Assembly: GCA_965230895.1 (NCBI GenBank)
Contig: OZ246394.1
Location: 1,121,887-1,185,886 of the forward strand
DNA: 64,000 bases
Origin: an uncultured Gammaproteobacteria bacterium
Lineage (GTDB): Bacteria; Patescibacteriota; Microgenomatia; Levybacterales; UBA12049
Reading direction: 5' to 3'
The first letter of the stretch is position 1, and each line of letters opens with the position of its first letter. Shown piece by piece: positions 11,248-43,311 of this stretch. Both the position numbers and the translations under genes were made by a program. The notes under the pieces are model-generated. The model was not told where the DNA came from and ran no database searches. It saw only the letters and a list, made by a program, of their open reading frames with translations.

Positions 11248-11259
11248 AATTCATTTCCT

Positions 11260-12370: not shown

Positions 12371-13056
12371 AATAAGTTTTTTCTTTTTAATTCATTTTTA
12401 ATTGATGCAAGCGTATCTGCTTCATCCATTTCAGAATCATCTAGGATAAAGTATCCAAGCTTCTCTGGATCTTTTGCGAGAGGATCCATTGCTCTATTTT
12501 GGTCCCGCTCATCTCTTTCCCGGACATCTGCAAGTACTGTGGCAAAATCTATGGTATCACCCTGCTCAGTATATTGCTTTAATCTCCTCTTTGCACGAAC
12601 TTCATCTGTCGCAGTGAGAAAGACACGTAATGCAGCATTCGGAAAAACGACAGTTGCTGTATCTCGTCCTTCGATTACAACAATATGACCCTGATTAACC
12701 ATATCTTCTGCAACGCTTCTTTGCAAAAGCACTAATTGTTTTCTTACCTCTGGAAGTGATGCAACAACAGAAGATCCATTTGCTGCATCTGGTTCTTTAA
12801 TTCTATCGGTAACATCTTCTCCATTGAGGAAAATCTGCTTCTCTCTGAACTCTATTTTAACATCCTTTAAAAGACTGATCACTTCCTGAGCGTTATGCAG
12901 GTCAATGCCCTTCTTAATCCCAGCTAATGCAACTGCTCTATACGTTCCTCCTGTGTAGAGATAAAAGCCCTGCAAATCGTCCGCAAGCTTTGAAGCAACT
13001 GTCCCTTTCCCGGCAGCAACCGGCCCATCGATAGCAATTACAAATCCTTTTGACAT
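12367..13056 (-). CDS. cmk: Cytidylate kinase
   Basis: IAIDGPVAAGKGT P-loop, GRD...VVFP, and a general match to Cmk architecture (recalled E. coli Cmk aligns along its length). Confidence 0.85.
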   Translation of the reverse strand: MSKGFVIAIDGPVAAGKGTVASKLADDLQGFYLYTGGTYRAVALAGIKKGIDLHNAQEVISLLKDVKIEFREKQIFLNGEDVTDRIKEPDAANGSSVVASLPEVRKQLVLLQRSVAEDMVNQGHIVVIEGRDTATVVFPNAALRVFLTATDEVRAKRRLKQYTEQGDTIDFATVLADVRERDERDQNRAMDPLAKDPEKLGYFILDDSEMDEADTLASIKNELKRKNLL

Positions 13057-13057
13057 A

Positions 13058-13606
13058 TCATATTACCTTTAACTTTTTTAATATCTCTTTATTAATGTCC
13101 GGAATTTTCTGTTCACCATTGATGGTGACAAGCTTGCGCTTCTTTTTGTAGTATTCTAGCACAGGCCTGGTGAAATTATGGAATAATTCAATTCGCTTTC
13201 TAATTGCACGCAATGTGTCATCCTCTCGCTCATTTCCTTCTTCTCCACGATATGATAGCCTCCATAAAGCTTCTTTATCAGATACTTCCAGATATATTAC
13301 TTTATCGATACCATTTCCGAATTCTTCAGCCTGCTTCGCAGTACGAGGGAAACCATCTAAGATGTATCCCTTTTTATATTCTTTTCGGGAAAGATATTCA
13401 GAAACAATTTCCAGAACTTTATCATCGGAGATAAGATATCCAGCATTCATTGTTTCTTTGATATAACGGCCAAGCGGAGTTCGTTCTTTAGCAAGTTCCC
13501 GAAAAATATGTCCGGTTGAGAGGTATGGTATTTTTAATTTTTTTTTAAGTAAGTTTCCTTGTGTTGATTTCCCAGCACCCTGGATCCCGATTATAATTAG
13601 TTTCAT
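13058..13606 (-). CDS. adk: Adenylate kinase (short form, no zinc-lid cysteines)
   Basis: [17 protein letters not shown]-loop, and LSTGHIFRE (NMP-binding). Confidence 0.88.
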   Translation of the reverse strand: MKLIIIGIQGAGKSTQGNLLKKKLKIPYLSTGHIFRELAKERTPLGRYIKETMNAGYLISDDKVLEIVSEYLSRKEYKKGYILDGFPRTAKQAEEFGNGIDKVIYLEVSDKEALWRLSYRGEEGNEREDDTLRAIRKRIELFHNFTRPVLEYYKKKRKLVTINGEQKIPDINKEILKKLKVI

Positions 13607-14895
13607 TATTTATTCAAAAACCCTTCGTAGTTTCTCATCACCAAATTTGCTTCAATTGCCTTGAATGTTTCAAGTACAACTGAGACCACAATCAAAATAC
13701 TTGCGCCTCCAAGAAGGAGAGTTTGCAGACCGGTAAGCACTCGGCCAATCTCTGGCAAAATTGCGACAAACCCCAAGAAACAAGCTCCGACCAAGGTAAT
13801 TCTCGTAAGAATATAATTCAAATATTTTGTCGTTGGCTGGCCTGGACGAACACCAGGTATAAAGCCTCCATACTTTTGAATATCTTCTGAAATCTTTTTC
13901 GGGTTGAAGACAACTGCTGTATAAAAGAATGTAAAGGCAACAACCAATAAGAAATAGAACGCATTGTAGAGGAATCCTGTCGGAGCAAACCAGATATTAA
14001 TCCATTGCGCCATACCTCGAAGCGCTCCATTATCTGATGTCGCGAAAACACTTGCAAGTAATGATGGCAGCAAAACGATAGACACAGCAAAGATGATCGG
14101 GATAACACCAGCCTGATTAAGGCGAAGTGGAAGGTGTGTTGATTGGCCACCATACATTTTATTACCACGCATACGCTTTGCATAATGGACCGGAATTTGT
14201 CTTGTCGCTTCGTTCACAACGATGATACCGATAATGACCAATAAACTCATTACCGTGAAGCCTAATAGACTTAAGCTTGCTTGTGTATCTGCAGTCGAGA
14301 AGGTCTGTCCAATTAAGACAGGTAATTGGCCTACGATACCTGCGACAATCAAGAGTGAGATACCATTTCCAATACCCCGATCAGTTATCAATTCTCCCAA
14401 CCAAACAAGCAGCATTGAACCTGCAACTAAGGTAAAGATAAATGCTACGAAATCCAATGGAGCAAGGCTCACAACCAAACCCTGACTCTTTAACAATGCA
14501 TAGACACCAATCGCCTGGAGTACCGCTAAAGGCACCGTAAGGAATCTTGTGTACTGATTTATTTTTCGACGCCCAGAATCGCCTTCTTTGGACAACTCTT
14601 CAAGTTTTGGAAAGACCATGGTAAGAAGCTGTAAAATGATGGATGCATTAATGTATGGATTAAGGCCTAAAGCCATGACAGAGAAATTAGCAAGCGTACC
14701 CCCAGAAAAGACATTGAGGAATCCTAAAAATTGGTTGTTCGCAAAGATATTCTTAAGTTGAGCTACATCAACTCCGGCAACTGGAACATGTGCTAGGAAA
14801 CGAAACACCAAGAAAATAAAAAGGATAAAGAGAATTTTGTTGCGTAATTCCGGCGATTTAAAACTATTACGGAGAGTATCAAATATACTATTCAT
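13606..14895 (-). CDS. secY: Preprotein translocase subunit SecY
   Basis: 429 aa, about 10 TM segments, in its canonical position after rplO. Confidence 0.93.
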
Positions 14896-24463: not shown

Positions 24464-25642
24464 TTATTTTATTATTTTGGTGATCACACCAGCTCCAACG
24501 GTTCTTCCGCCTTCGCGAATCGCGTATCGGAGACCTTCTTCAAGAGCTACTGGAACAATAAGTTTAACTTTCATGTTTGTTGTGTCACCAGGCATAACCA
24601 TTTCTACACCATCTGGGAGAGTAACATTACCTGTAACGTCTGTTGTTCGGATATAGAATTGTGGTCGATATCCCTTAAAGAATGGTGTATGACGTCCACC
24701 TTCTTCTTTAGTCAAAACATAAGCTTCAGCTTCGAATTCAGTGTGAGGAGTGATACTCTTTGGTTTAGCAATAACTTGACCTCTTTCAACATCTTTCTTT
24801 TCAAGACCTCGGAGAAGAAGACCTACGTTATCTCCTGCTTGACCTTGATCAAGAATCTTCTTAAACATTTCTACACCTGTTACAACTGAATCTTTATTCT
24901 TATCAAGTCCTACGATTTCAACTGGTTCATTAACTTTAACAACTCCTCTTTCAATTCTTCCAGTTACAACCGTTCCTCGACCTTTAATTGAGAAAACATC
25001 TTCAACTGGCATCAAGAATGGCTTATCAAGATCACGAACTGGATCTGGAACGAAGTCATCAACTGCTTGCATGAGATCAAGGATCTTTTGTTCGTATTCA
25101 GCATTTCCTTCAAGTGCTTTCAAAGAAGAACCTCGGATGATTGGAGTGTCATCGCCAGGATATTGATACTTAGAGAGCAACTCTCGGATTTCCATTTCTA
25201 CAAGATCAAGAAGTTCTGGATCATCTACCATATCACACTTGTTAAGGTAAACAACAATTGCTGGAACACCAACTTGTCGTGCAAGAAGGATGTGTTCACG
25301 CGTTTGAGGCATTGGGCCATCTGGAGCAGAAACTACTAAGATTGCTCCGTCCATTTGAGCTGCACCAGTGATCATGTTTTTGATGTAATCAGCATGTCCT
25401 GGAGCATCAATGTGTGCATAGTGACGCTTATCTGTTTCGTATTCTTGGTGAGAGATATTGATTGTAACTCCTCTTTGTCGTTCTTCAGGAGCGTTATCAA
25501 TGTCAGCGTAAGATCGAGCTTGTGCAAAACCTTTTTTTGCAAGAACAGTGGTGATAGCCGCTGTTGTTGTCGTCTTACCATGGTCTACGTGACCAATAGT
25601 TCCGATATTTACGTGTGGTTTGTTTCGTTGAAATGTTGCCAT
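24464..25642 (-). CDS. tuf: Elongation factor Tu
   Basis: [21 protein letters not shown] motifs; 392 aa. Confidence 0.97.
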
Positions 25643-25852
25643 AGTGTTTTAAAAATAAAATCTCTCAATTCATTTATTGAGAGTAAATGTATGATACTAC
25701 AAAAAACGTGCCCCGTCAATAGGTTATTGTAAGAAAAACAGACTAAAACTCATGTATTTTGTTACTTTCCGTTGTTTTAGTATATTTATATTAAGGTATA
25801 TATAAGATATATATGCTTGACATTAGATTTTTTAAAGTGCAACAATAAAGAT

Positions 25853-28144
25853 ATGAATCCTGACCAAGGCACTACGTCACAAACACAACCTCTACCAGCA
25901 CATGATACTCTAAGTGCACAGTCAAGAAAACCATTGCCAAAGAAGTTTTTTATTATTGGGGGCCTTTTATTATTGCTCATCATTGCAATTGCATTGACAT
26001 TATTATTTGGGAAAAGTGAGAAAACTACCTCGAAAGATAATACTTCAGCGGTAGCTCCAACTTCAGGATTTGAAGAGATTAAAGAAACTGCGGAAAATTC
26101 ACCAACTGCAAAAGCTAGCTCGCATGTTGTAGTTTATGGATCATGGACAGGACAATCATCTTTAATAAAAGCAATTGATACAAATACCTCCAAAACTCAG
26201 TTAATCGCTACCCTTCCTATGGCAATTAAAAAAGTCGCTGTTCTTAACAACCAATCTCTCCTTTATATTGGGGACGTTGATAAAAAGGATCATGGGAAAA
26301 ACGTCACTATATACGATATAAAAGAGAAGAAGGTAGTTTCTACTATCTCAGCTTCTGAAGGGTACGGAATTGATGAATATACATTATCTCCAGATAAGAA
26401 GTATCTTGCGCTATGGGAGGTTCAATTTGCACAAGGATCAGAAATATTACAAGGTGGAAAGTCCAGAGTTTATACAGTTGCATTATCGAACCCAACAGTT
26501 AAGAATCTTATATATGATGAGCAAGCATTACAACCAATTCACTATCCACGAGCAATTCTTAATGATGGAACAGTATTTATGGATATGTTTATGCCAAATG
26601 ATCCACTTGGTGGAGCAGGATGGGCATACGGCATGAGTATGGCTTCGTTTGATGGGACAAATAAACGCGATATTGATTCATTAAAGTCAGGAACATATGG
26701 AAATCAGCCAGCATTATCACAGGAAGGTCGATATCTGCTCTTAACAGGATATGATGGAAAGTATGGAGATGGCACAGGCGTTAAGAATGGGATTCGCCAA
26801 GCAATCCTTACATCAAATACTGTTGATCTTGTTGATACAAAAACACTTCAGAGGTATAAATTACCAAATCTTTCAAACAATGATAGCTATGCATCTGCGC
26901 ATTGGGACTTTGTGACAGGCAAGATTATACTTTCAGTAGTAGGCGCAACAGCGGATAAAACAGGTCTTTATGCCTATGATATTGCATCAAAATCTCTTCA
27001 AAAGATTTCTGTTCCCTCGATAAATAACACTGAGTATATGCAAATCTCTAATCTACCAAATAACCAATTATTGATAGGCACATTTGAAGAAAATTCATCA
27101 AATCTTGGTAATTTAGGAGCAAATTATGAATATGCTTATACAAAACTAATGACATTGGATACTAAGACCTCTAAAAGCAAACCAATCTCTCTTGAAGATA
27201 CGTATGCACAATATATAACAGTACTTCCAGCTGATTATTTCAATAATGTCCTCGGGATCAAAACAATAGCCCAAGCAAATCCTCAGCCTACATTTGTAGA
27301 CCAGTATTCTGATCAAAATGCTACAAAAGAACGGTTGCAACTTTATACATTCTTCTTGAAATATGATTTGCAGCCTGTTCGCCTAAAGCAACAAAGCACG
27401 CCTGTTTCAACAACTCCAGTTAATTTATCAAAGATTACGCTGACGCCAAACACAACCTATCCACCACATAACGACGATAATATGCCAAAATGTAATGACG
27501 TTACAGCAAAAGTTTGTGCAGAAAAAGGTCAAGGTCCAGGAACAAAGGACTACACAATGTGTAAAGGTATGTACAAAGCACAAAATATGGAAAGAACGTG
27601 TGATGACTCTCCCCTTTACCTTTATGGTACACCTGGACAAAAAGTCCAAGTAACGATAAACACACCTGTTTATAACGCAATCCCATCCTATGATAGGGGA
27701 TACGAAATTACATTGATGCAACATGGGAAAATGCTTATCAATAATAACTCGTATGACAGAATTTCTTATGACTACTCATCAAATTTGAAAATAAGAAAAG
27801 CTCCAAAAGAGGGAAGTGTAACAACAAAGGAGAATTTGCCTTCCCTACTTAAAGATTATGCAAGAAAGCTTGGGCTCAATGATAAAGAGACTAAAGATTT
27901 AATCTCTGCTGGTTTACAGAAAGTCAAAACACCATACGCATTCGTCTCTTTCTATGATCATGAGACATCACATCGTATATTGCCAATCACATTCAATCCT
28001 CAGCCAGATAATTACTTAAATGTTGTATTCTATTTCAAGCAGCTCCAACAAAAGCCGAACCTAACCCCAGTCCCTCCTACATTCCCAGATCCGGTTAAAA
28101 GAGATGGATTTACTGCAATCGAAGTAAGTGAAGTTGTTGAGTGA
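25853..28144 (+). CDS. Membrane-anchored (N-terminal TM) extracytoplasmic protein, paralog A, with an extra Cys-containing C-terminal region
   Basis: The N-terminal polar tail is followed by a TM helix (FFIIGGLLLLLIIAIALTLLF) and then a domain of about 420 aa that is colinear and clearly homologous with the downstream gene. Shared blocks include YGSWTGQ, SPDKKY..WEVQF, LLGGKSR.Y, PTVKN..YDE, WAYGMS, FDGTNKRDI, GTYG.QPALS, LGNLG and QYITVLP. An SPDxKY-type motif suggests a TolB-like beta-propeller, which is a guess. The track start at 25817 is TTG. The ATG at 25853 (MNPDQG) matches the MDPAQP start of the paralog. Confidence 0.6.
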   Translation: MNPDQGTTSQTQPLPAHDTLSAQSRKPLPKKFFIIGGLLLLLIIAIALTLLFGKSEKTTSKDNTSAVAPTSGFEEIKETAENSPTAKASSHVVVYGSWTGQSSLIKAIDTNTSKTQLIATLPMAIKKVAVLNNQSLLYIGDVDKKDHGKNVTIYDIKEKKVVSTISASEGYGIDEYTLSPDKKYLALWEVQFAQGSEILQGGKSRVYTVALSNPTVKNLIYDEQALQPIHYPRAILNDGTVFMDMFMPNDPLGGAGWAYGMSMASFDGTNKRDIDSLKSGTYGNQPALSQEGRYLLLTGYDGKYGDGTGVKNGIRQAILTSNTVDLVDTKTLQRYKLPNLSNNDSYASAHWDFVTGKIILSVVGATADKTGLYAYDIASKSLQKISVPSINNTEYMQISNLPNNQLLIGTFEENSSNLGNLGANYEYAYTKLMTLDTKTSKSKPISLEDTYAQYITVLPADYFNNVLGIKTIAQANPQPTFVDQYSDQNATKERLQLYTFFLKYDLQPVRLKQQSTPVSTTPVNLSKITLTPNTTYPPHNDDNMPKCNDVTAKVCAEKGQGPGTKDYTMCKGMYKAQNMERTCDDSPLYLYGTPGQKVQVTINTPVYNAIPSYDRGYEITLMQHGKMLINNNSYDRISYDYSSNLKIRKAPKEGSVTTKENLPSLLKDYARKLGLNDKETKDLISAGLQKVKTPYAFVSFYDHETSHRILPITFNPQPDNYLNVVFYFKQLQQKPNLTPVPPTFPDPVKRDGFTAIEVSEVVE

Positions 28145-28186
28145 TCGAGCTTGACAAACTCTCCGCAATATTGACAAAATAGCTCT

Positions 28187-29635
28187 ATGGATCCTGCCCA
28201 ACCAAATCCCAATCAACCATTACAGCAGCCACAACAACCGCCACAGTCAGAGCAAGCTGCTACGCCCGTTGCACCAACACAGCCACCAGCACCTGACGCA
28301 ACAAAGCCTTTCCCAAAAAAACTCGCGCTAATAGCAGGCGGAGGTGCGCTCATTCTTCTCATTATTATTGCAGTTATATTTGGCCTGAGTGGAAGAAAAT
28401 CTTCTAACGGAACTGTAATGCCCACTCCAACGAAAGCTCAATCTGGGGGAGAAGTTAAAGCAACGCCTGTAACAAGAGATCCTGATGATCCACAAAAGAT
28501 GATGATCTATGGAACATGGACAGGGCAAACAACTGTAGTCCGGGGAGTTGATATTGGCAGCTCCGAGAGTCTTAATATTGCTACGCTTCCACTTGAGGTA
28601 AAGAAGATTTCAGTTCTCTCCTCGCAGAACCTGATGTACATAGATCAAGTTGACACAAAAGAGTTAGGACGTAGGATAACTATTTATAATCTTAAGACCA
28701 AAACTTCAAGTCAAAGCATTCCGGCCTCTTCAGGATATGGGATAGAAGATTATGCTTTATCTCCGGATAAAAAGTATATTACTATTTGGGAAGTCCAATT
28801 TGGATCGACAACACAATCTCTTCTAGGTGGAAAATCAAGAATCTATGCAATTGATTTATCAAGACCTACAGTAAAAAACATTCTTTATGATGAAACAGTA
28901 AGTACAACTATTCCGATACACTACCCAATAGGTATTTTGAATAATGGTACTGTCTTCGCAGATACTCTTATTCCGAGTGGCACAAATGGCAGTAAAGATT
29001 GGGCATATGGTATGAGTGTTGTTGACTTTGACGGTACAAATAAGCGAGATATTGAATCGATGAAGAAAGGAACCTATGGAACCCAACCAGCACTTTCCCC
29101 TGACGGCAAATACCTCCTATTTGCAGGATATGATGGATCAAAAGGTAACGATCCTGCAGGGAGACAAGCAATAATGACACCAAACACGATTGATGTTCTC
29201 AATACTGAATCACTTAAACGATTCACACTACCAAACCTTTCAAGTACAAATACCTATCCAACGGTTTCATGGGAATCTCAAACAGGAAGAATCTTTTTTG
29301 CTCAATTTTCGCTCGATACTCAGAAAACAAATTCATTCTCATATGATCTGGGCAAGCAAAAACCAACTGAGATCGTTATTCCAATTGAAGGCGATTCGAG
29401 ATATGGATATGTAGAACAACTAAATGATGCAAAAGCACTTATCGGAGCACAAGATCTCGATCCATCTAACCTAGGCAACTTAGGAAATGCTCCTGCTTAT
29501 GCCTACACACAACTAGCACTTTTAGACGTGCAGACTTCAAAAGTTAACTTTGTCTCAGTACAGGATGCATTTGTACAGTATATAACTGTATTACCTACCA
29601 CCTACTTTAAATCCACACTTGGTGAGGCTCAATAG
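28187..29635 (+). CDS. Membrane-anchored extracytoplasmic protein, paralog B (482 aa)
   Basis: The Pro/Gln-rich N-terminal tail is followed by a TM helix (LALIAGGGALILLIIIAVIFGL), then a domain homologous to paralog A. Confidence 0.6.
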   Translation: MDPAQPNPNQPLQQPQQPPQSEQAATPVAPTQPPAPDATKPFPKKLALIAGGGALILLIIIAVIFGLSGRKSSNGTVMPTPTKAQSGGEVKATPVTRDPDDPQKMMIYGTWTGQTTVVRGVDIGSSESLNIATLPLEVKKISVLSSQNLMYIDQVDTKELGRRITIYNLKTKTSSQSIPASSGYGIEDYALSPDKKYITIWEVQFGSTTQSLLGGKSRIYAIDLSRPTVKNILYDETVSTTIPIHYPIGILNNGTVFADTLIPSGTNGSKDWAYGMSVVDFDGTNKRDIESMKKGTYGTQPALSPDGKYLLFAGYDGSKGNDPAGRQAIMTPNTIDVLNTESLKRFTLPNLSSTNTYPTVSWESQTGRIFFAQFSLDTQKTNSFSYDLGKQKPTEIVIPIEGDSRYGYVEQLNDAKALIGAQDLDPSNLGNLGNAPAYAYTQLALLDVQTSKVNFVSVQDAFVQYITVLPTTYFKSTLGEAQ

Positions 29636-29651
29636 GGGAGACTGGCCATTT

Positions 29652-30731
29652 TTAAAAATAGGAATATGCCCAAAAGGAGAAACTTGTAATACCTCTTGTA
29701 CGTAAGTATTGTTGTTTTTGCCGTACAGAAGTCATATCTTCAAACCAAACAACATGCTTTTGCCCTTCACTATCTGTATAAGTAACTCTTGTTTCTGCAG
29801 ACAAAGCATCACGTTTAATAGCACATGACGTATAGTCGCAATCGTCAAGAAACTTCTGCTCAATTTCTTTATAAGTTAACGGTGAGCCTTGTGAAATAGC
29901 TTTTCCATTATTATCAACTTCCCAATCATAGCCAAACATACCAAAAATGATAGTAACATTCTTTGGAGAAGTGTACTGAAGAATATCATCTGCTAGTTCA
30001 GTCATATCATAACCATACGTTTCTTTACCTTGCATAGGAAAGTTTGGTCCCGGATTTGAGCGTGACTTATGGAAATCATACGCCATTAGCATAAAAGTGT
30101 TGTTCGCCTCAGAAAGTGATTTCACATCAAAAGGCCTTAGTCGATAAAACGTATCACCATATAAAGCCATAGTAAACTCCAATTTTGCCTCCTTCGTTTT
30201 TGTTGCAAAGTTATTTGAGAAGGTACTGATTTGATCTACAAGAGAGTCAAAAGGGATAGCACTCATTTCTAAATCGAGAACAATTCCTGAAAAACCGTTT
30301 TGTTTAGCATATGATACAGATTGATCTATTATTCGTGCCTGGGCGTTTTTATCTTTTAATATATTTGCGTTTACTTCCGAATCAACCATGCGTAGAACCA
30401 GAAGCGTTTTTTTACCTTGAGGCACATTTTCCCTAAAAGCATCTATTCGTGCATATCCTTCTTCTTCTGAAATTCCTTTCGCATTTGGTGTTATCCCGAA
30501 ATATAAATATTGGTCGTAGCCATTAAATGTCTCATCTCCAATTGCCCAATAAGGAACAAAAACAGAATTTACTGTTTTTTGATTTGGATCAATAGCAATT
30601 GAAGGAGTAGGAGAGAGCACTGTTTCTAAAATAGGTTGGGATAGATCTTTTCCTATTTTTGCTTTTGCGGCCTGAATAATAACGAAGACTAAGGCAAAGA
30701 GTAAAACAACTACAAGGATAAAACGCTTCAT
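29652..30731 (-). CDS. Secreted/anchored glycoside-hydrolase-family-18-like protein (putative)
   Basis: N-terminal hydrophobic signal. GFSGIVLDLEMS resembles the GH18 D-x-x-D-x-D-x-E catalytic block (G-F-D-G-I-D-I-D-W-E) but does not retain all acidic positions, so it may be inactive or divergent. Confidence 0.4.
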   Translation of the reverse strand: MKRFILVVVLLFALVFVIIQAAKAKIGKDLSQPILETVLSPTPSIAIDPNQKTVNSVFVPYWAIGDETFNGYDQYLYFGITPNAKGISEEEGYARIDAFRENVPQGKKTLLVLRMVDSEVNANILKDKNAQARIIDQSVSYAKQNGFSGIVLDLEMSAIPFDSLVDQISTFSNNFATKTKEAKLEFTMALYGDTFYRLRPFDVKSLSEANNTFMLMAYDFHKSRSNPGPNFPMQGKETYGYDMTELADDILQYTSPKNVTIIFGMFGYDWEVDNNGKAISQGSPLTYKEIEQKFLDDCDYTSCAIKRDALSAETRVTYTDSEGQKHVVWFEDMTSVRQKQQYLRTRGITSFSFWAYSYF

Positions 30732-30786: not shown

Positions 30787-31227
30787 ATGGAAAAAGAAAA
30801 AAAGGCGATAATCTTCAATATCGTACTAGCTCTCGCAACAGTATTCCTTCTTATCACAGGGCCTTTATATGTCGTAGAAAATCTTACTTTCGTAATGGTC
30901 CAAGTATTTGGTATTTTACTTATTCTTTGGGCGCTTCTATCCAGAAACATGAATCGGACGCATACACATAAGCTTCCTCCTGGATATTTCTGGGTTTCAA
31001 AAGGTCCATATGAGATTATCCGTCATCCAATTTATGCAGGCTTCTTACTGATTCTGTCGAGCATGGTACAGTATAATTTTGAGATTATTCGTATCACATT
31101 ATTCCTTCTAATAATCGCTATCATATTTCTAAAAATTATTAGAGAAGAGGATACGATGCAAAAAGAGATAACTGAGTATGGTGAGTATATGCTGAAAACA
31201 AAACGGATTATTCCATATTTGTTTTAG
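30787..31227 (+). CDS. Isoprenylcysteine carboxyl methyltransferase / phospholipid methyltransferase family membrane protein
   Basis: Multi-TM, with the family motif VSKGPYEIIRHPIYAGFLL. Confidence 0.65.
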   Translation: MEKEKKAIIFNIVLALATVFLLITGPLYVVENLTFVMVQVFGILLILWALLSRNMNRTHTHKLPPGYFWVSKGPYEIIRHPIYAGFLLILSSMVQYNFEIIRITLFLLIIAIIFLKIIREEDTMQKEITEYGEYMLKTKRIIPYLF

Positions 31228-31894
31228 GAAGATCTTCTCGTTTTAAGATAATAAAATATTCTTCTTTTCTTCTTTTTCTAAAAGCTCCAAGAATATTATC
31301 GATATCATGTTTTTGCGACTCATGCTTTGTCATTGCAGAAACTTTTTGCTCCCAAACAGGCTCAATATCAACGACTTTGGAAATATCGCTGTCTTTATAC
31401 CCTGGAGGGAAATAGATAAAATATGGCTTCTGAAAAGAACGTGCATATTCTGACATACAGTAATACCAAAGTTCAGAAACCGTTGAAACTTTTTCAAACA
31501 CAAAACTTGTAATCATGGATACAGCAATATGATCTATATGCCCTGATACCCCTCGTGGCTCATATGTTATAAGCATCTCTGGATCAAGTGATTCAATTTG
31601 CTGTTGTACTTTATCAGCTATTTCATGATATAGATTGTTTGAGAGTGTGCCATCGTGATAATCAAGAAAAAATACTTCTTTAACACCGATTGCAGTTGCA
31701 GACGCTTTCAGTTCGCCTCTGCGAATTTCTCCAAGGTTTACCCCGCTTGAATTCTCGAGGCTATTCATACCTGCGTCCCCATTTGTTACACAAATGATAT
31801 AAACATCTCGCTCTTTTGCCATCATGGCCATAGTCCCTCCTGGACCAAATACTTCATCATCTGGATGCGCAAATACTGCTACTACTGACTTCAT
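31208..31894 (-). CDS. PIG-L/LmbE family N-acetylglucosaminyl deacetylase
   Basis: AVFAHPDDEVFGPGGT motif and HxDH (SGHIDHIAV). The start is placed at the ATG at 31894, just before the motif (the track ORF extends to 32071). Confidence 0.7.
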   Translation of the reverse strand: MKSVVAVFAHPDDEVFGPGGTMAMMAKERDVYIICVTNGDAGMNSLENSSGVNLGEIRRGELKASATAIGVKEVFFLDYHDGTLSNNLYHEIADKVQQQIESLDPEMLITYEPRGVSGHIDHIAVSMITSFVFEKVSTVSELWYYCMSEYARSFQKPYFIYFPPGYKDSDISKVVDIEPVWEQKVSAMTKHESQKHDIDNILGAFRKRRKEEYFIILKREDLPKTNME

Positions 31895-32525
31895 ATATTC
31901 TATTATAGCAAGCTTTTTAAAATATGCGGTAGGGGATGCAAATTTTACATTTTTCAGTACGCTCAAATTGAAAGCTATTTTCCTTTTTACTTTAATGCGA
32001 GTTTTTTGCATCCGGCGGGGGAGCCAAAAATCGTTTTTGGCAGGGGAGTCGCATATCATTATTTTTTCCATAATAATTTGTTTAGAAACTGTTTTATAAA
32101 TGATTTAACACTAAGAATTCTCAGGAAAGTTTTCAACATAAGATTTTAAAGTTATCCACAAAAAGACTTTCGTATCTTTTTGTTATTGGCAGTAGGCATT
32201 TCATTGTGAGAATAAACACCTATAATACGCAGAACATACTGATCGAACTATATCATCCGTGGCTAATTCTAGAGTTTAAGTCCCTATAATAAGCATTCGT
32301 ATTTTTTGCATTATATCGTGAAAAGTACCGTTGTGAAAAGATGATGATATAGTTGTATATGGTAATACTATGGGACTTAGATGATGCAGTTTGCACTACT
32401 CTCTTCCCTGTCTTTGTGGCTAAGTATATAATTCGTAGGACAAAAAATTATTTAAAATACAGAATACACTTGGAAAAATCAAAATTATGAAAGATATTAC
32501 AGATTAACTTCAGGCGTTTAAAGGA

Positions 32526-34667
32526 TTATTGCTCTATTCTACCTGTGAAAGTAGATTTAGCGAGGAGCTGGTCGATAATGTTCTTTGGAACATATTCATA
32601 ATGACTTGGTTCCATATAGAAACTTGCACGTCCCTTCGTCAATGAACGGAGTTGTGTTGCATATCCTGAAAGTTCTGAAAGTGGAACTTGCGCCAAAATA
32701 ATTGTCGCATTCCCCCGCTCTTCTGATCCACCGATTTGAGCCCGCTTTGATGAAAGATCACCCATAACTTCTCCCATGTATTCACTTGGAAGTGTTACTT
32801 CAACTTTCATGATCGGTTCAAGGAGTGTAATCCCCGCCTTCTTTGAAGCAGCTTGAATTGCTTGAGATGCAGCAATCTTAAACGCAACTTCGGAAGAGTC
32901 AACATCGTGGTATGAACCGTCATAGCAAGTTACTTTAACGTCGATAAGTGGATATCCTAAGAGCACACCATTATCCAAAGTTTCTTTAACACCCTTTTCT
33001 ACAGCCTTAATAAATTCTGCAGGAATAGCTCCTCCTTTGATCGCATTAACGAATTCATAGCCTTCACCTCGAGGTTTTGGTTCAAGTCGAAGCCAGCAAT
33101 GACCATATTGACCTCGTCCTCCGGACTGCTTAATGTATTTACCTTCAGCTTCTGCAATTTGTGAAATAGCTTCTTTATATGCAACTTGTGGAGCACCGAC
33201 GTTTGCCTCGACGTTAAATTCTCTCTTCATACGATCAACCATGATTTCAAGTTGGAGTTCTCCAATACCTGAGATAATAGTTTGGCCTGTTTCATGGTTT
33301 GTCTTAACTGTAAATGTAGGATCTTCTTCTTGAAGTCTCTTCATTGAATACCCAAGCTTTTCTTGATCTGATTTAGTCTTTGGTTCAATAGCAAGTGAGA
33401 TAACTGGTTCTGGGAATGTAATTTGCTCAAGAATAATTGGCTTATCTTCATCGCAGAGAGTATCTCCAGTAATGGTATCTTTCAATCCTACAATAGCTAC
33501 GATTTCTCCAGCATATGCCTCTTTTATTTCTTCACGGTCATTCGCATGCATCATGAGAAGACGACCAATACGTTCTTTAACACCTTTGTTTGCATTGTAA
33601 ACGTATGATCCTGCAGAAAGTTTTCCTGAGTACACACGGAAGTATGCAAGTTTTCCAACGTGAGGATCATTTTGGATTTTGAACGCCAATCCTGAGAAAG
33701 CTTCTTCAGGAATAAGTCTTCGGTTTTCTTCAGCATTTGTTTTTGGATTGATCCCTCGAACATCAGACAAATCTTGTGGTGATGGAAGGTAATCTACGAC
33801 TGCGTCAAGAAGTGGTTGAACACCTTTATTTCGAAGAGATGTGCCCGCGTACATAGGAACCAATTTGTATGCAATAACAGCTGCTCGAAGTGCTTTTCGA
33901 AGTTCTTCGACAGATGGTTCTTCTCCACCGAGATACTTTTCAAGAAGAGCATCATCAGTTTCTGCAATCTTTTCGATAAGCTTATTTCGATATTCTTCAA
34001 CTTGATCTTTCATGTCTTCAGGAACTTCATCCTTTACTTCATACTTTGCACCAAGTTCATCTGAACCCCAGATGTATGATTGTCGTGTCAAAAGATCAAC
34101 ATTACCTTGATATGTATTTTCAGCTCCAATTGGGAGAACCATAATTGCTGGATTTGCACCAAGTCGATCTTCAACACTTTTGACAGTATTAAGGAAGTCT
34201 GCACCAAGCTTATCCATCTTGTTAACGAAACAAAGTCGTGGAACTTTGTATTTGTCAGCTTGTCGCCATACAGTTTCAGATTGTGACTGTACACCTTCTT
34301 CAGCGTCAAGAACGGTAATACCACCATCAAGTACACGAAGTGAACGTTCTACTTCAGCTGTAAAGTCGACGTGCCCTGGAGTGTCAATAATGTTGAATCG
34401 AGTATCAAGTCCTACAAACATACCTGTTCTTGGAGTCCAGAATGCTGTGGTCGCTGCTGATACGATAGTAATACCGCGCTCTTTCTCTTGTTCCATCCAG
34501 TCCATCTGAGTATTACCTTCATCAATGTCACCAATCTTGTATGTACGCCCTGTGTAGAAAAGAATACGTTCTGTTGTAGTAGTTTTTCCTGCATCAATAT
34601 GCGCAATAATTCCGATATTTCGGATGCGGTCTAAAGGATAAATACGTGATTTTGGATCTGCTGCCAT
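32526..34667 (-). CDS. fusA: Elongation factor G
   Basis: [20 protein letters not shown] and the domain IV/V blocks; 713 aa. Confidence 0.97.
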
Positions 34668-34768: not shown

Positions 34769-35506
34769 ATGACTGAAGCATTGAAAAGACAACCGTACAC
34801 TCTTGATGCGTTTGAACAAATGACTGTGGACAATTTTCGACGAGCTGAAGGAGAGATCACAGATTGGAAGCTTTATTATGCAGAAAGGTTGACTGACGAA
34901 ACCAAAGAATTTGGATTCCAACACGGACCTGGTTTATTGCTGTTGTCACCCGCTTATATGGTACCTGACTACGCTGTAGAAGATGAATCACTCCAGGAAG
35001 GTATGGCTGATGAACTTGGTGATAAGCTCTACTTCGCCGCTCATTTAGCTCGGCATATAGGTATTCCTTTGAAACGTATTGCAGCAAATGCACTAGGCAA
35101 ACATACTGATACACAATATACAGGCATAGAAACATTTTCAGACCTTCAAACAACAGTTATGGCAAACGCTCATAAAATTTCTATTCCCAATGAGCTTAGT
35201 TATGGAATGTTAAGCTTTATAAATGACGATCAGCCTCATATCGATGCACCCTTTACGAAAACAACTTTACAGGACAACCCACTTTTTGTCTTGATGCGGT
35301 TTACAAATAGACTTGTGGATTCTCTTGACCCGAGCACAAGAGATAGAGCGGCTGTTGAACCGACAGTAGATACCACAACTGCATTAGGTGATTATGTAAA
35401 TGCACTCACATATGTAGCCAAAGCCCGTCTTGGGAAAAATATTGAAGATATTGCACTTGCCACAAAAGCAAAATCTGAACACCGAAAGAAATACGGCAAA
35501 GTGTAA
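34769..35506 (+). CDS. MazG-like nucleoside triphosphate pyrophosphohydrolase domain protein (putative)
   Basis: ADELGDKLYFAAHLARHIGIPL resembles the MazG EExGDLLF..V.LAR..G motif; otherwise uncharacterised. Confidence 0.4.
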   Translation: MTEALKRQPYTLDAFEQMTVDNFRRAEGEITDWKLYYAERLTDETKEFGFQHGPGLLLLSPAYMVPDYAVEDESLQEGMADELGDKLYFAAHLARHIGIPLKRIAANALGKHTDTQYTGIETFSDLQTTVMANAHKISIPNELSYGMLSFINDDQPHIDAPFTKTTLQDNPLFVLMRFTNRLVDSLDPSTRDRAAVEPTVDTTTALGDYVNALTYVAKARLGKNIEDIALATKAKSEHRKKYGKV

Positions 35507-35595: not shown

Positions 35596-36210
35596 GTGGC
35601 TATGGCTGAAAATACTGTCCCATCAATCAATTTGCTACCAAAGAAAGGTGAAAGCTTTTTAAACCAGTTTCTTAATTGGACACTGACAATTGGAAGACTT
35701 CTCATCATCATAGTTGAGTTCGTGGCATTAGGCACTTTTCTCTTTAGATTTGATCTTGATATGAAAATCGTTGATCTTAAAGACAAGATTGAAGCGCAAA
35801 GCTTTATTGTCGCTAACTTTCAAAAATCTGAGGCAAATTTCCGGGACATCCAAGACCGTTTGGAACTTATAAAGCGGTATGAACAGATTGGTGGAACAAC
35901 ATCAGGTATTTTTGCAGATATTACAAAGTTAGGAGCAGGAAAAGTCACATTCAAAGATCTTACTGTCGAACCTGAAAACGCAAAAATTGAAGCACAAGCA
36001 GGTTCCCCTGCTGCACTTATGGCTTTTGTGGCAGCATTAAAGCAGCACCCATCAGTAACAGGTGTCATTGTGGATAAAGTGCAAAACAGCGCTTCAACAT
36101 CCCTTGTCAGTGTAAGTATTACAGCAACGCTTAAGCCACAAGCTTTTGAAAAAGATGAATCATTAAATCCAAATGCGGGACAAGTGGCACCAATATTAGA
36201 GACTGAGTAA
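35596..36210 (+). CDS. PilN-like type IV pilus assembly protein
   Basis: N-terminal INLLP motif, then a single TM, then a periplasmic-type domain; about 200 aa. Confidence 0.55.
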   Translation: MAMAENTVPSINLLPKKGESFLNQFLNWTLTIGRLLIIIVEFVALGTFLFRFDLDMKIVDLKDKIEAQSFIVANFQKSEANFRDIQDRLELIKRYEQIGGTTSGIFADITKLGAGKVTFKDLTVEPENAKIEAQAGSPAALMAFVAALKQHPSVTGVIVDKVQNSASTSLVSVSITATLKPQAFEKDESLNPNAGQVAPILETE

Positions 36211-36212
36211 TT

Positions 36213-36833
36213 ATGAGACTGCCTAAAAGTTATTTTGAAAGTTTATCTGCGACAAAATATCGCGAATATTTAAAGCTTCTTCCAAATATGGAGAAGGAGC
36301 ATACACGTGCATTTGTAACAATTGCTTTGACATTTGCAGCGCTTTCATTCTTTGGTATTTTTGCAATTAATCCAACCTTAACAACGATTGCAGAACTACA
36401 AAAAGAATTAGAAGATAACCAAATGGTAGATCAACAATTATCAGCAAAAATAAATAATTTGAGTCTTCTGCAGCAGCAATACAACTTATTAGAATCTGAT
36501 CTTCCTGTGGTTTATGCAGCGATTCCAAAAACAGCAGATGCTCCACTTCTCAGTGCACAAATAGAGGCACTTGCTAGAAAACATAACGTTACGATTGAAA
36601 CCTACAGAATTGCAGAAGTACAACTCGCCTCAAATAAGCAAAAACTTACGAAAACCACTTCGTTTACCTTTACGCTTGAAGCAACTGGAACATATCAGAA
36701 CATGATTAATTTCTCGACAGCGCTTGCAGGTCTTAATAGAATAGTTACTGTAGAATCCATGAGTATAAGTAGAGATAGTAAAACAAATGAACTTATGCTT
36801 ACATTACGAGGCAGACAATATTTCAAACCATAA
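36213..36833 (+). CDS. PilO-like type IV pilus assembly protein
   Basis: TM helix plus coiled coil plus a C-terminal alpha/beta region; about 200 aa, translationally coupled to the PilN-like gene. Confidence 0.45.
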   Translation: MRLPKSYFESLSATKYREYLKLLPNMEKEHTRAFVTIALTFAALSFFGIFAINPTLTTIAELQKELEDNQMVDQQLSAKINNLSLLQQQYNLLESDLPVVYAAIPKTADAPLLSAQIEALARKHNVTIETYRIAEVQLASNKQKLTKTTSFTFTLEATGTYQNMINFSTALAGLNRIVTVESMSISRDSKTNELMLTLRGRQYFKP

Positions 36834-36836
36834 ACT

Positions 36837-37199
36837 ATGCGAGGAAAGAAACAACATAACCCACAAAAAGATATTTTATTTATTCTCGGATCATCGTTCG
36901 TAGTAGTCGTGGCATGGATTGGATTTAATCTTTACCATATATATATAACATCTACTGTTAGTGATGAGATACAAGTACAACTAACACCTATCAATCCAAC
37001 ATTTGATAAAGATTTAATCCGTGAACTTAAATCTCGAGAGAAAATAAATCCTGCATTTGATAAACAGCCAAGCGCATCAAGATCAGCTACTACCCCAACA
37101 GCTGAACCGACACCAGAAGCTTCAAATTCTGGGACTCTTGAGACATCATCACGATTTGCACCTGCCGACACGGAAATAGCGACAAGATCTGGACAATGA
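36837..37199 (+). CDS. Small membrane protein with Pro/Thr-rich tail
   Basis: One TM segment (ILFILGSSFVVVVAWIGF). Overlaps the next gene by 4 nt. Confidence 0.4.
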   Translation: MRGKKQHNPQKDILFILGSSFVVVVAWIGFNLYHIYITSTVSDEIQVQLTPINPTFDKDLIRELKSREKINPAFDKQPSASRSATTPTAEPTPEASNSGTLETSSRFAPADTEIATRSGQ

Positions 37200-38590
37200 T
37201 ATATAACACAAAAAGTCTTTTAAATAGAAAAGTTCCTGCTTACGCGGGGATCTTTGTCCTGCTAGTAACACTTGGCCTTACTGTTCTTTTAAGTGGAAAT
37301 ACCGTTCAATTTGTTAGTAAAGCAACTGTCGGTAGTGAGCCTAAGAATGTGCAAGTCAGTAATATTAGCGCGACATCATTTACAATATCGTACGAGACGG
37401 ACCAGACAGCGGTTAGTACTGTTGCCTATGGGAAAGATACGGCCCTAGGAGATGTTGCATTAGATGTTAGAGATGTACTGACGGGAACACCTGCAGAACA
37501 CAGGCTTCACTATGTAACTGTACAAAATCTTGAACCCGGTACAGCATACTACTATACAATTACATCTGGAGCTCAAGTATCTGACAATAATGGTGCTCCA
37601 TATGAGATACGTACTGCTACAAATGTTGCTACATCTCCACCAACAAATGGAACTATTTCAGGTTCGGTCGCACTTGAAGATGGAACATTTCCAAATGAAA
37701 GTATTGTATACATATCTACAGAGACATCTCAGCTTTTATCAGCACTCGTACAACCAAATGGAACATTTACAACTTCTCTTGCTCAACTACGGACAAAGGA
37801 TCTGACAGCATATTCACCCGTTTTAGAGAAAACACCAATAAAGATATCTGCAACGAATGCAGCACTTCAATCAGAGGTTTCAGTGCTAGGAGAACAAATA
37901 GCTGAAGTTCCTAAAATTATTCTTTCGAAGAATTATGATTTTACTTTGAGTGGAGATGAATTAACGGCGAGTGAATCTGGTTCTTCTGCTTCGCAATCAG
38001 CGGGATTCCCAATTTTTGATGAAGCAGTTTCAGTGAGTTCACCTACGATTACAACACCTGAAGATCAACAAGTATTTAAAGACGCACAACCGTTATTTAA
38101 AGGGCAAGCACTACCAAATACTGGAATTGAAATCGTAATAACTGCTGATAGTGAAATTGCAGCATCATTACAGAGTGACTCAACAGGCATGTGGGAATTT
38201 AGACCACCGGTTGCACTAAATCCTGGACAACATACGATTACGATTTCTTCAATTGATTCCAAAGGAGCTATGCAAGATGTATCTCGAGCATTTACCGTTA
38301 ATGCTTCTGGAGGACAATTTACTGAGCCTTCGGTCTCTCCTATCCAACCCACACAAGGTCCCCCTGTTACTCCAACAGTTGCAGCTCTCCCCTCTCCTAC
38401 TCCAACATTGGAGCCATCACCGACTGCAACACCAACAGCAATTCCATCACCTACAATTGATCCAAATGCGATTAGCCCAACAAGAGGACCGCTCTCCCCT
38501 ACTGGTAGCTATTCTACTGTTGCTGGAATAATCACAAGTGTACTTTTCTTAGCAGGTGGTGTTATACTATTCTTCACAATTGCTGTGTAA
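37196..38590 (+). CDS. Cell-surface protein with fibronectin-III-like domain, Pro/Thr-rich stalk and C-terminal TM anchor
   Basis: N-terminal signal/anchor, an FN3-like block (PKNVQVSNISATSFTISYETDQ...LEPGTAYYYTI), a PT-rich linker, and a C-terminal hydrophobic segment GIITSVLFLAGGVILFFTIAV. No canonical LPXTG was found. Confidence 0.45.
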   Translation: MIYNTKSLLNRKVPAYAGIFVLLVTLGLTVLLSGNTVQFVSKATVGSEPKNVQVSNISATSFTISYETDQTAVSTVAYGKDTALGDVALDVRDVLTGTPAEHRLHYVTVQNLEPGTAYYYTITSGAQVSDNNGAPYEIRTATNVATSPPTNGTISGSVALEDGTFPNESIVYISTETSQLLSALVQPNGTFTTSLAQLRTKDLTAYSPVLEKTPIKISATNAALQSEVSVLGEQIAEVPKIILSKNYDFTLSGDELTASESGSSASQSAGFPIFDEAVSVSSPTITTPEDQQVFKDAQPLFKGQALPNTGIEIVITADSEIAASLQSDSTGMWEFRPPVALNPGQHTITISSIDSKGAMQDVSRAFTVNASGGQFTEPSVSPIQPTQGPPVTPTVAALPSPTPTLEPSPTATPTAIPSPTIDPNAISPTRGPLSPTGSYSTVAGIITSVLFLAGGVILFFTIAV

Positions 38591-39945: not shown

Positions 39946-41613
39946 ATGCATCTGATCCTTAAGAATAAATATACGTATTTCGTTTCTATACTCACTATTT
40001 TAGGCTTTTTTCTCCATTTTTATAATCTTAATTGGGGTGCTCCATATTATTTTCATCCTGATGAAAGAAATGTCGCAAGTGCAATATCGCAACTTCGATT
40101 CCCCGAACAATTAAATCCTAATTTTTTTGCATACGGTTCGTTTCCTATTTATGTTGTTTTCTTCACGGGGCTTCTTTTTAATACAATTACAAATAATCCA
40201 CTCCATGGGCAAATTCCTTTTGATCAAGCGATCATTATCGGGAGGATGTATTCTGCGATTTTCGCAACAGCGCTTATACCATTGCTTTATATTTTGGGTA
40301 CAAAACTTCATGATAAACGGACTGGCGTAATTGCGGCAACATTTACCACATTAAGTACAGGATTTATCCAATTTGCACATTTCGGAACATTTGAGCTTTG
40401 GCTTACATTCTTTACTACCGTTCTCTTCTGGTTATGTCTAAAACTTTTAGAAAGAAAAACCATCAGGTACGTACTTCTTATTGGATTAGTTTGTGGGATA
40501 CTTGTTGCAACAAAAATTTCGCATCTTACTATTCTTCCGTTGCCACTTTTAGCATTAATAGCACTCCATATTAAAGGAAAGGGCAAGCATCATCACAAAT
40601 TCACTCGGCTATTGTTCTTTGTCCAAGAACTTGCACTTTTAGGAATTACTACTTTACTCATTTATTTTGCAACCAATCCATATGTGCTACTTGATTTCAA
40701 TGCCTTTTTTGCAAGCATGAACTATGAATCAAGTGTTGGATTAAATACGCTTCCTGTATTTTATACTCAAGGATTTTACGAGACGATACCTGTCTTTTAT
40801 CAATTTCTTAATATTTATCCATTCCTCCTTAACCCGATTATGACTATTCTTTTTGTCTTTACTTTTATATTCATCCTTGTCTGGGCAATTCGTTACAAAA
40901 ATTTACAGTATCTTTTGCTGCTGGGATTTTTCATTATTCTTTTTGTTTCTCAATCTTTTCTTTTTATTAAATGGGCTCGGTATATGATACCAACACTCCC
41001 CTTTCTCTATCTCATTATTGCCTTAACACTTTCGCATGTGCTTTTCAGGAAATCGTATGTTGCAAATGTCGCGAAGCATAGTCTAATGCGCGTAATAGTT
41101 ATTTCAATTTTTATTGTTAACACAATTTTTTCTCTTTCTTATTTTGTGACAGCCTTCGTCCAACCGGATACAAGAATCTCAGCTGCCACTTTTTCACGTC
41201 AGGCAATCCCCGCTACTGCAGCTGTTTTGACTGAAACATATGATATTGGAATAACACCTTTCAATAGTATCTTTACAAAGATAGTTATTTTTAACACCTA
41301 TGATCTTGATAGTGACTCACTTGAATATAACGAGACAACTTTGAATGAAATTGCAAAAAATTCAGATTATATAATCATCCCAAGTCAACGCGTACTGCAA
41401 ACACGTATCAATAACCCACAGCGTTACCCTATTGGCAATAAATTTTATAGTTCGTTAATGCATGGCAAATTCGGATATACCAAGGTTTATGAGACACCAT
41501 GTGACACAATCTGTAAAATTGCCTACTTAGGGGATCCTATCTATCACTTTGAACAGACGATTAATGTCTTTGACCGTCCAACTGTATTTATTTTCAAGAA
41601 TAATACTAAATAA
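39946..41613 (+). CDS. GT-C fold glycosyltransferase (family 39/83-like, polyprenyl-phosphate-sugar dependent), paralog 1
   Basis: More than 10 TM segments. An N-terminal loop carries the FHPDERNV motif (a DE in the first loop is typical of PMT/ArnT-like GT-C enzymes). It is homologous to the next gene. Confidence 0.6.
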   Translation: MHLILKNKYTYFVSILTILGFFLHFYNLNWGAPYYFHPDERNVASAISQLRFPEQLNPNFFAYGSFPIYVVFFTGLLFNTITNNPLHGQIPFDQAIIIGRMYSAIFATALIPLLYILGTKLHDKRTGVIAATFTTLSTGFIQFAHFGTFELWLTFFTTVLFWLCLKLLERKTIRYVLLIGLVCGILVATKISHLTILPLPLLALIALHIKGKGKHHHKFTRLLFFVQELALLGITTLLIYFATNPYVLLDFNAFFASMNYESSVGLNTLPVFYTQGFYETIPVFYQFLNIYPFLLNPIMTILFVFTFIFILVWAIRYKNLQYLLLLGFFIILFVSQSFLFIKWARYMIPTLPFLYLIIALTLSHVLFRKSYVANVAKHSLMRVIVISIFIVNTIFSLSYFVTAFVQPDTRISAATFSRQAIPATAAVLTETYDIGITPFNSIFTKIVIFNTYDLDSDSLEYNETTLNEIAKNSDYIIIPSQRVLQTRINNPQRYPIGNKFYSSLMHGKFGYTKVYETPCDTICKIAYLGDPIYHFEQTINVFDRPTVFIFKNNTK

Positions 41614-41615
41614 AA

Positions 41616-43310: not shown

Positions 43311-43311
43311 C

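Follow-up and report, generated by a model that had tools for sequence, protein, structure and literature searches.

We analyzed a stretch of 64,000 nt from contig OZ246394.1 (the whole stretch is referred to below as the window), in which two adjacent, co-directional genes lie beside tuf. Gene A (25853-28144, + strand) encodes 763 amino acids (aa) from its ATG and represents the long form of the protein family described in this work. Gene B (28187-29635, + strand) starts 42 bp downstream and encodes a short form of 482 aa, a C-terminally truncated member of the B clade. An initial annotation made from the sequence and its open reading frames (ORFs) had described the pair as tandem paralogues with colinear ectodomains of about 420 aa, each behind a low-complexity tail (Pro/Gln-rich in B) and a single transmembrane (TM) helix, with an A-specific C-terminal region of about 290 aa containing several Cys. 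This description holds in every detail that could be checked. BLASTP aligned A and B with 44% identity and 64% positives over 464 colinear residues (E-value 9e-127), from the KKxxPKK motif that precedes the TM helix to the C-terminal end of B. By this pairwise measure the similarity is far beyond chance.

A and B are built alike: the low-complexity tail at the N-terminus is followed by a motif rich in K/R (KPLPKK in A, KPFPKK in B) and by one hydrophobic helix. The tail of A, predicted to be cytoplasmic from the positive-inside bias of the family (aa 1-31; 25853-25945, + strand), ends in RKPLPKK. It is modelled with a predicted local distance difference test score (pLDDT) below 50 and is the fastest-evolving part of the protein, with 52% identity to the orthologue. 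The TM helix of A was placed at approximately aa 32-52 by hydropathy (25946-26008, + strand; helix at aa 31-51 in the AlphaFold2 model). In B (within 28187-29635, + strand) the tail takes up aa 1-45, with 12 P and 9 Q among the first 40 aa, followed by the TM helix at about aa 46-66 and a propeller domain at about aa 102-479. The roughly 290 additional C-terminal aa of A include four Cys conserved in the family (C547, C555, C570, C583). An in-frame TTG at 25817 is found upstream of the ATG of A; it sits within a promoter-like -35 box and is unlikely to be the start codon of A since the homologues start with M-[DEQN]-P at the position of the ATG.

Both A and B are predicted to be bitopic type II membrane proteins (N-in/C-out) because the K/R bias favors the N-terminal side of the helix, in agreement with the topology given in the initial annotation. 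Among 83 family proteins, the 15 aa flanking the helix contain on average 3.5 K+R on the N-terminal side and 1.9 on the C-terminal side; the N-terminal side is richer in 64 of the 83 proteins and poorer in 5. The conserved, paired Cys residues fall in the C-terminal part of the proteins, which fits an extracytoplasmic location.

An AlphaFold2 model of A was built with a 56-sequence alignment of the family (mean pLDDT 81.5). Residues 88-470 (26114-27262, + strand) form about 29 strands, mostly with pLDDT above 90, and the model describes them as a beta-propeller that most likely has seven four-stranded blades. Behind the propeller the model places a low-confidence linker (aa 470-545), a two-helix hairpin containing the Cys residues (aa 547-583) and a compact alpha/beta domain (aa 584-763), which we call the C-dom. 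A Foldseek search against PDB matched more than 800 propeller chains with a probability of 1.0, and the seven-bladed ones fit best. The top match was the PL22 oligogalacturonate lyase 3pe7 (E 2.6e-11, target template-modelling score, TM-score, 0.53), and further top matches were quinohemoprotein and methylamine dehydrogenases, prolyl oligopeptidases (E about 1e-8) and WDR5; the six-bladed TolB gave a poorer fit. All matches are at 9-14% identity, with target TM-scores of 0.53-0.57 for the seven-bladed propellers. Judged from the model, the likeness to solved propellers is generic, at the level of the fold only.

Profile searches gave a similar picture. PD40 (PF07676) matched a single blade of B (aa 299-315) with 19.2 bits (E 0.0012) against a gathering threshold of 20.9, and the Pfam scan found no PD40 match in A. 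The equivalent blade of P0329, a distant member of the family, reaches 28.9 bits and so exceeds the PD40 threshold of 20.9. The NCBIfam TolB equivalog TIGR02800 scored 12.8 bits in B against a cut-off of 343 and did not match A, and faint matches to TolB and Dpp5 were seen at E about 0.03. When A, B and three standalone C-dom proteins (see below) were searched against Pfam, NCBIfam and PHROGs, nothing was above threshold and the PD40 blade was borderline. The sole sequence match of the family profile in PDB was Leptospira Lp49 (3bws; E 0.014, 17 bits, about 70 residues); apart from it, PDB sequence profile searches with the whole family, the propeller or the C-dom returned noise only, for example an engrailed homeodomain at E 0.12. 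The beta-propeller that had been suspected from SPDxKY-type strands is thus well supported by model and structure search. The label "TolB/DPP-IV-like" applies to the fold but not to the family, given the TIGR02800 and PD40 scores above and the lack of an S9 domain, and the Pfam and NCBIfam searches revealed no well-characterized housekeeping family behind the domain.

Conservation is unevenly distributed over the propeller. Column identity in the family is highest over aa 170-340 (0.71-0.77), corresponding to approximately three adjacent blades, and lowest over aa 341-448 (0.50). The identity between A and B parallels this pattern, with 0.58-0.60 in the former region versus 0.25-0.38 in the latter. 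Family-wide, 23 columns are invariant, and in the conserved part most of the residues that are invariant or nearly so have aromatic or charged side chains (H230, Y231, D244, N249, W257, Y259, Y282, Y300, D301, R315). From the order of the strands, many of the invariant residues would sit in loops of one face of the propeller.

The family is found in a narrow range of organisms. Among 5.8 billion proteins, a word-indexed search identified 86 relatives (clusters), all unnamed or annotated as "hypothetical", and the few organism labels among them are mostly Levybacteria. An exhaustive HMMER search of 1.84 billion representatives, with a profile made from propeller-only members, gave 218 relatives at E<=1e-3 and 133 at E<=1e-30; by these sequence searches it forms a compact group, with no continuous transition to the large families PD40 and WD40. 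Among 185,579 species, each represented by one genome, we detected 45 family loci, and the propeller family appears restricted essentially to Levybacteria of the Candidate Phyla Radiation (CPR). Levyibacteriota belong to the Microgenomates group of Patescibacteria (CPR), and many of the family-bearing records are titled Levybacteria, Levyibacteriota or Microgenomates. An organism of CPR type is in keeping with these relatives. Other records carry titles such as "uncultured Gammaproteobacteria", "Limnocylindrales", "Sulfotelmatobacter", "Acidiferrales" and "Saccharimonadales" (L006, L012, L014-L018, L021, L024, L026, L030 and others). Where such oddly titled records include the flanks, their tuf is 84-98% identical to that of the window and their gene order is the same as in the Levybacteria loci; the titles therefore seem to be wrong or placeholders. 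No viral relatives of the propeller or the C-dom were found in IMG/VR contigs or PHROGs, and searches of the literature on Levybacteria in connection with beta-propellers, a host or the cell surface found nothing relevant.

The propeller was compared with four known systems. Like TolB and other PD40 proteins, A and B are predicted to have an extracytoplasmic beta-propeller, for which a role as an envelope scaffold is plausible; a signature of the "SPDGKY-LxF" type is seen at a borderline score in one blade of B and above threshold in P0329. TolB has a six-bladed propeller, whereas that of A and B most likely has seven blades; A and B are without the N-terminal domain of TolB, are anchored by a TM helix instead of being soluble in the periplasm, and A carries an unlike C-terminal module in an organism that, as presumed for CPR bacteria, has no outer membrane. 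No tol-pal genes are located nearby, and there is no OmpA/Pal-like gene in the tuf-fusA block. The TolB of the Tol-Pal system was rejected on the basis of the TIGR02800 score, far under its cut-off, and of the neighbors tuf, GH18, ICMT-like, PIG-L and fusA in the window and about 15 relatives. The S9/DPP-IV peptidases also combine a seven-bladed propeller with a C-terminal alpha/beta domain, and DPP-IV is likewise a type II membrane protein. The C-terminal domain of A, however, is only about 180 aa long, has no match to Peptidase_S9 or an alpha/beta-hydrolase, and has neither a Ser nor a His that is invariant. Whereas S9 enzymes have a portion of their catalytic domain N-terminal to the propeller, in A nothing catalytic precedes it. 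An S9 prolyl oligopeptidase/DPP-IV assignment was rejected as there is no alpha/beta-hydrolase domain with a Ser-Asp-His triad.

The PL22 lyases (3pe7, 3c5m) are seven-bladed and include the top structural match, but the identity is 11-12%, there is no PL22 Pfam match, and PL22 enzymes are cytoplasmic or soluble while A and B are membrane-anchored. PL22 enzymes use a His-rich Mn site, and the family studied here has one near-invariant His (H230). Membership in PL22 was rejected because of the missing family match and the single His, the metal site being judged by residue inventory and not by superposition. Lp49 of Leptospira (3bws) is a surface-exposed bacterial propeller of unassigned function with a weak profile match to the family; the similarity is marginal, over about 70 residues, and the architecture is different.

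Both genes belong to a conserved block, which in the window has the order rpsJ, tuf (-), A (+), B (+), GH18 (-), ICMT-like (+), PIG-L (-) and fusA (-). The left edge is tuf, encoding EF-Tu (24464-25642, - strand), and the right edge is fusA (32526-34667, - strand). Convergent to the pair lies the gene for a membrane-anchored GH18-family glycosidase (29652-30731, - strand; Pfam GH18 E 2.3e-19), followed by an ICMT-like membrane methyltransferase (30787-31227, + strand) and a PIG-L/BshB-like deacetylase (31208-32059, - strand). The closest solved relatives of the GH18 protein are enzymes of sporulation and the spore cortex, namely Bacillus YdhD (3cz8, 6e-12) and YaaH and the cortical-lytic enzymes 4s3j/4s3k, with classical chitinases ranking after them; YdhD, YaaH and the cortical-lytic enzymes act on peptidoglycan. 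The GH18 protein has an N-terminal membrane anchor, and of the DxxDxDxE motif it keeps only the last D-x-E (GIVLDLE). The same block is present in the closest genome, GCA_964507055, and in about 15 Levybacteria loci in total, and the GH18 gene adjoins a family gene in about 15 loci.

When the copy number in relatives was examined, as the initial annotation had proposed, the tuf-fusA site turned out to hold two copies in the window, L003/L006, L009 and L012, and one copy in L007, L013, L019, L023, L024, L026, L030, L032, L034, L041 and L047. The ICMT-like and PIG-L genes are present in most tuf-fusA loci; L013 and L047 are without them and keep the convergent pair of family gene and GH18 gene. 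The largest local expansion seen is in L017, where five family genes are arranged head-to-tail away from tuf (3588-14262). A second locus was found in L053 and L054, in which a family gene lies beside GalT and hexokinase genes, downstream of rplJ-rplL. The GC content of the block (0.37-0.40) is like that of its surroundings. A mobile or phage-derived insertion was rejected on account of this normal GC content, the conserved synteny and the absence of IMG/VR relatives and PHROG matches. Ordinary composition, about 15 syntenic relatives and no viral occurrence argue against a recent insertion, and we concluded that the block is an old, vertically inherited interruption of the fusA-tuf pair. The initial annotation was correct in placing the genes directly beside tuf, but their "insertion" there is an old gene order of the whole lineage (about 15 loci) and not a local novelty. 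Five genes separate tuf and fusA in the window, rpsG and rpsL are not found beside fusA, and the next ORF (34769-35506, + strand) has no assignment; in this lineage the genes of the classical str operon no longer stand together, and about 15 Levybacteria loci share the break.

We propose, with a probability of roughly 45%, that the propeller serves as a platform for ligand binding, of the PD40/TolB kind, and functions in the maintenance of the envelope or cell wall. The short disordered tail and the single TM helix would hold the propeller outside the membrane. There it would bind a ligand and not act as an enzyme, the three conserved adjacent blades (aa 170-340) providing the binding surface, and it would take part in the upkeep of the cell wall or envelope, perhaps together with the neighboring peptidoglycan-type GH18 protein. 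The C-terminal module of A would add a second, separable function, such as attachment to the wall or to a partner. The binding role is favored because no catalytic family or motif was matched and because a conserved face of several blades lies beside variable blades; the envelope role is favored because of the constant GH18 neighbor, nearest to YdhD and YaaH, and the envelope-rich neighborhood. Several observations weigh against this proposal. The invariant Y, W, H, D, E and R residues would equally suit a catalytic site, and the top structural matches are enzymes. The family members at the second locus have no GH18 neighbor. The genes of the block point in different directions, and their synteny may reflect simple inheritance in one lineage. 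To these points must be added the saturation of synonymous sites reported below.

The first two of these observations lead to another reading, in which the propeller would be an extracytoplasmic enzyme (for example a glycan lyase, a hydrolase or a peptide-processing enzyme) that works with GH18 and PIG-L on amino sugars derived from the wall or scavenged. Its best Foldseek matches (PL22 3pe7 at E 2.6e-11, amine dehydrogenases, prolyl oligopeptidases) and its polar or aromatic invariant and near-invariant residues (H230, Y231, D244, W257, Y259, Y282, Y300, D301, R315) would fit such an activity, as would the presence of sugar-related neighbors at both loci (GH18 and PIG-L beside tuf, hexokinase and GalT at the second locus). 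Identities of 9-14% with TM-scores near 0.5, however, amount to generic propeller similarity, no enzyme family of Pfam or NCBIfam was matched, the S9 catalytic domain is absent, and a single near-invariant His makes a PL22-type His-rich metal site unlikely. We regard an enzymatic propeller as unlikely.

The history of the pair was examined by comparison with its relatives. A neighbor-joining tree of propeller domains groups A with P0050, P0053 and P0054, and B with P0002-P0015. A-type and B-type genes occur together on other contigs (P0050 with P0007, P0053 with P0005), which indicates that the A/B duplication predates these genomes. A is 81% identical to its orthologue in L003. B is 65% identical to its 769-aa orthologue, and the L003 orthologue carries the full C-terminal module. 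The long form is ancestral because the members of the basal clades are all 700-800 aa in length; medium forms (about 560-620 aa, with the linker motif and Cys segment only) and short forms (about 465-525 aa) arose several times. A DNA alignment of the window with L003 revealed a clean deletion of about 930 bp in B, spanning from just after the propeller to the intergenic hairpin, with its junction at 29624-29650 (+ strand). The deletion removed the linker, Cys hairpin and C-dom of B and most of the intergenic spacer. Two assemblies from independent read sets and a 1.6-Mb contig encode the identical 482-aa B protein; the short form is therefore not an assembly artefact. In L009 the pair consists of proteins of 504 and 778 aa with 60-62% mutual identity, and in L012 the mutual identity is 53%; the pairs in L009 and L012 may have originated from independent duplications, although the margins are small. 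That the orthologues of B possess the C-terminal module which B lost, and that the duplication is old and recurrent, had been missed in the initial annotation.

Nonsynonymous divergence (dN) between the window and L003, calculated by the Nei-Gojobori method, is 0.127 for A, 0.242 for B, 0.119 for GH18, 0.110 for PIG-L, 0.025 for fusA and 0.014 for tuf, so B evolves approximately twice as fast as A. The ratio of dN to synonymous divergence (dN/dS) is about 0.06 for A and about 0.15 for B, comparable to GH18 and PIG-L, and is to be read qualitatively only since synonymous sites are saturated (proportion of synonymous differences, pS, 0.66-0.75). With dN/dS well below 1, the codon comparison clearly points to purifying selection on both genes. 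A near-consensus, promoter-like site precedes each of them, with TTGACA, an 18-nt spacer and a TG-extended, -10-like AACAAT before A (25817-25846, + strand) and TTGACA, an 18-nt spacer and a TG-extended CAAAAT before B (28151-28180, + strand). Both sites stop 6 nt before the ATG, with no Shine-Dalgarno sequence in between, and the same layout is found upstream of both L003 orthologues. The counts of promoters and terminators in the region are not above shuffled expectation, and only these two identically placed sites from the sequence scan were kept. Their placement suggests separate promoters for A and B and leaderless or near-leaderless mRNAs.

These data also bear on the possibility that the B duplicate is decaying towards a pseudogene, which would leave A as the only functional copy. 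B lost about 290 aa by deletion, its dN of 0.242 versus 0.127 for A and a branch longer than that of its orthologue show faster change, and it is 59-61% identical to P0008 as compared with 71% for the L003 B protein. Its 482-codon ORF is nevertheless intact with a dN/dS of about 0.15, every family-invariant residue of the propeller is kept, the identical sequence occurs in other assemblies, the promoter-like site upstream is conserved, and propeller-only forms arose several times independently, which suggests that they are useful. Decay is accordingly very improbable. By these measures B is a functional, faster-evolving, propeller-only derivative, which was generated by the deletion of about 930 bp and probably has its own promoter.

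Duplication and diversification could also be read in terms of host attachment, a role considered in the initial annotation: A and B would be adhesins of an episymbiont, with changes in copy number and sequence tuning the host range. Epibiotic lifestyles are known in CPR bacteria, to which this organism belongs. Such a role would agree with the recurrent tandem duplication (two copies in the window, L003, L009 and L012, five in L017), with the variable blades at aa 341-448 and the variable tails (A/B identity of 0.25-0.38 in these blades), and with the repeated loss of the C-terminal module. On the other side, three blades are highly conserved family-wide with 23 invariant columns, dN/dS stays far under 1, a single copy is present in many genomes, neither hypervariable repeats nor signs of phase variation were observed, and no link between Levybacteria and a host was found in this dataset or in the literature searches. 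Because of the strong conservation of the three blades and the low dN/dS, we do not favor host attachment and consider it improbable; the binding platform in envelope maintenance is the reading that we retain.

The long form continues beyond the propeller with a linker motif, a hairpin that would be stabilized by disulfides and the alpha/beta domain of 180 aa. In A the linker motif is RLQLYTFFLK (aa 494-503; 27332-27361, + strand), located in a predicted-disordered region with pLDDT of 45-70. About 30 long forms carry the motif, and the Q, L, T, F, K, L, R and QQ residues of the linker are at least 90% conserved among long forms. The helical hairpin (27491-27601, + strand) has helices at aa 547-557 and 565-578, and its four Cys (C547, C555, C570 and C583) are presumed to form two disulfides. 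The C-dom (aa 584-763; 27602-28141, + strand) is predicted with pLDDT above 90, and a separate AlphaFold2 model of the last 288 residues of A agrees with the full model.

Standalone proteins of about 330-350 aa also carry the C-dom, preceded by a TM helix. A profile of propeller-linked and standalone C-doms detected 2,972 proteins at E<=1e-3; among the 120 matches listed, all are unnamed or hypothetical and without a Pfam domain, and the few labels are Patescibacteria. That the C-dom is a widespread and undescribed CPR module had not been recognized in the initial annotation. The standalone proteins share with A the linker motif, a Cys-rich segment and a homologous C-dom (27-31% identity) with invariant P, Y, Y, E, P-x-P-D, Y, R-x-G and E residues. 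They differ from A in having no propeller, 8 Cys instead of 4, a C-terminal end of WGG instead of SE, and genes in a separate cluster for hypothetical surface proteins including a VWA protein. Overall, 6-8 Cys precede the C-dom in standalone proteins and the Cys count is even in 107 of 111, which fits extracellular disulfides. Their motif, typically NLQLK-x-(L/V/F)-x-F, lies 15-29 residues (median 26) behind the TM helix, and a stretch rich in Pro and Thr comes after it. A motif of the class (N/S/G)LQ(L/I/M)xx(F/L)x(F/L) also precedes the VWA domain of the neighboring protein, and in the propeller family the motif lies C-terminal to the propeller. Besides the site in the window at 27332-27361, the motif was located in L051 (376-1296, 4840-5853, 6001-7020 and 7788-9164) and L040 (820-1872).

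The standalone C-dom clusters are found in L051 (1-9164) and L052 (1958-7524), and also in L040 (205-2716) and L045 (17337-18682), near rpsB-tsf or glyA. The cluster is conserved and comprises genes for a VWA protein with a TM anchor, a coiled-coil protein of 121 aa, a protein of 566 aa that contains 45 Cys, a TM protein of about 220 aa, two or three C-dom proteins and a divergent TM protein of 200 aa. The equivalents of the latter in L020 and L045 have a weak PsbP-like Pfam match, and the L051 copy has none. The standalone C-dom genes are surrounded by hypothetical proteins throughout, which provide no functional handle.

In domain order, A resembles a standalone module protein that has taken up a propeller between anchor and motif. 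It is conceivable, though we hold it as a tentative idea only, that the C-terminal part of A is an instance of an undescribed, CPR-wide surface module, that the motif is a signal of Microgenomates for sorting, processing or partner docking, and that the propeller family came about by insertion between anchor and signal. As far as the searched libraries show, both the C-dom and the linker motif that unrelated CPR surface proteins have in common are new.

Other parts of the window encode further envelope-related proteins. After fusA, the region 35596-38590 encodes a 204-aa protein, PilO, a 120-aa protein and a 464-aa fn3/Big_13 protein, is syntenic in relatives and is probably a pilus-assembly or related surface apparatus. 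Two PMT_2 glycosyltransferases, a GT4 glycosyltransferase, a DUF2298 membrane protein, a LytR-CpsA-Psr ligase and a FemAB transferase are encoded within 39946-49047 and 52500-53534. An ORF of 1,084 aa (59022-62276, + strand) has no Pfam match and shows weak, sub-threshold similarity to YbdK-type carboxylate-amine ligases at aa 92-266. An Rfam scan of the window gave no RNA family match.

The fold of the propeller is very common, and what is described here is a new variant of it restricted to one lineage. The tandem pair beside tuf is an ordinary lineage-specific duplication within an old conserved gene order. In CPR bacteria the genomes are small, many proteins have no assigned function, and although their cell surface is thought to be central to their lifestyle, few of their surface proteins are understood. 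The locus described here defines a compact, Levybacteria-specific family of membrane-anchored propellers with a strongly conserved three-blade face, an unannotated extracellular domain of about 3,000 clusters that has a confident predicted structure and no PDB relative, and a conserved linker motif common to unrelated surface proteins. The propeller family, the C-dom and the motif are tractable: each could be taken up by structural genomics, be described in a new Pfam entry and be examined for processing by proteomics.

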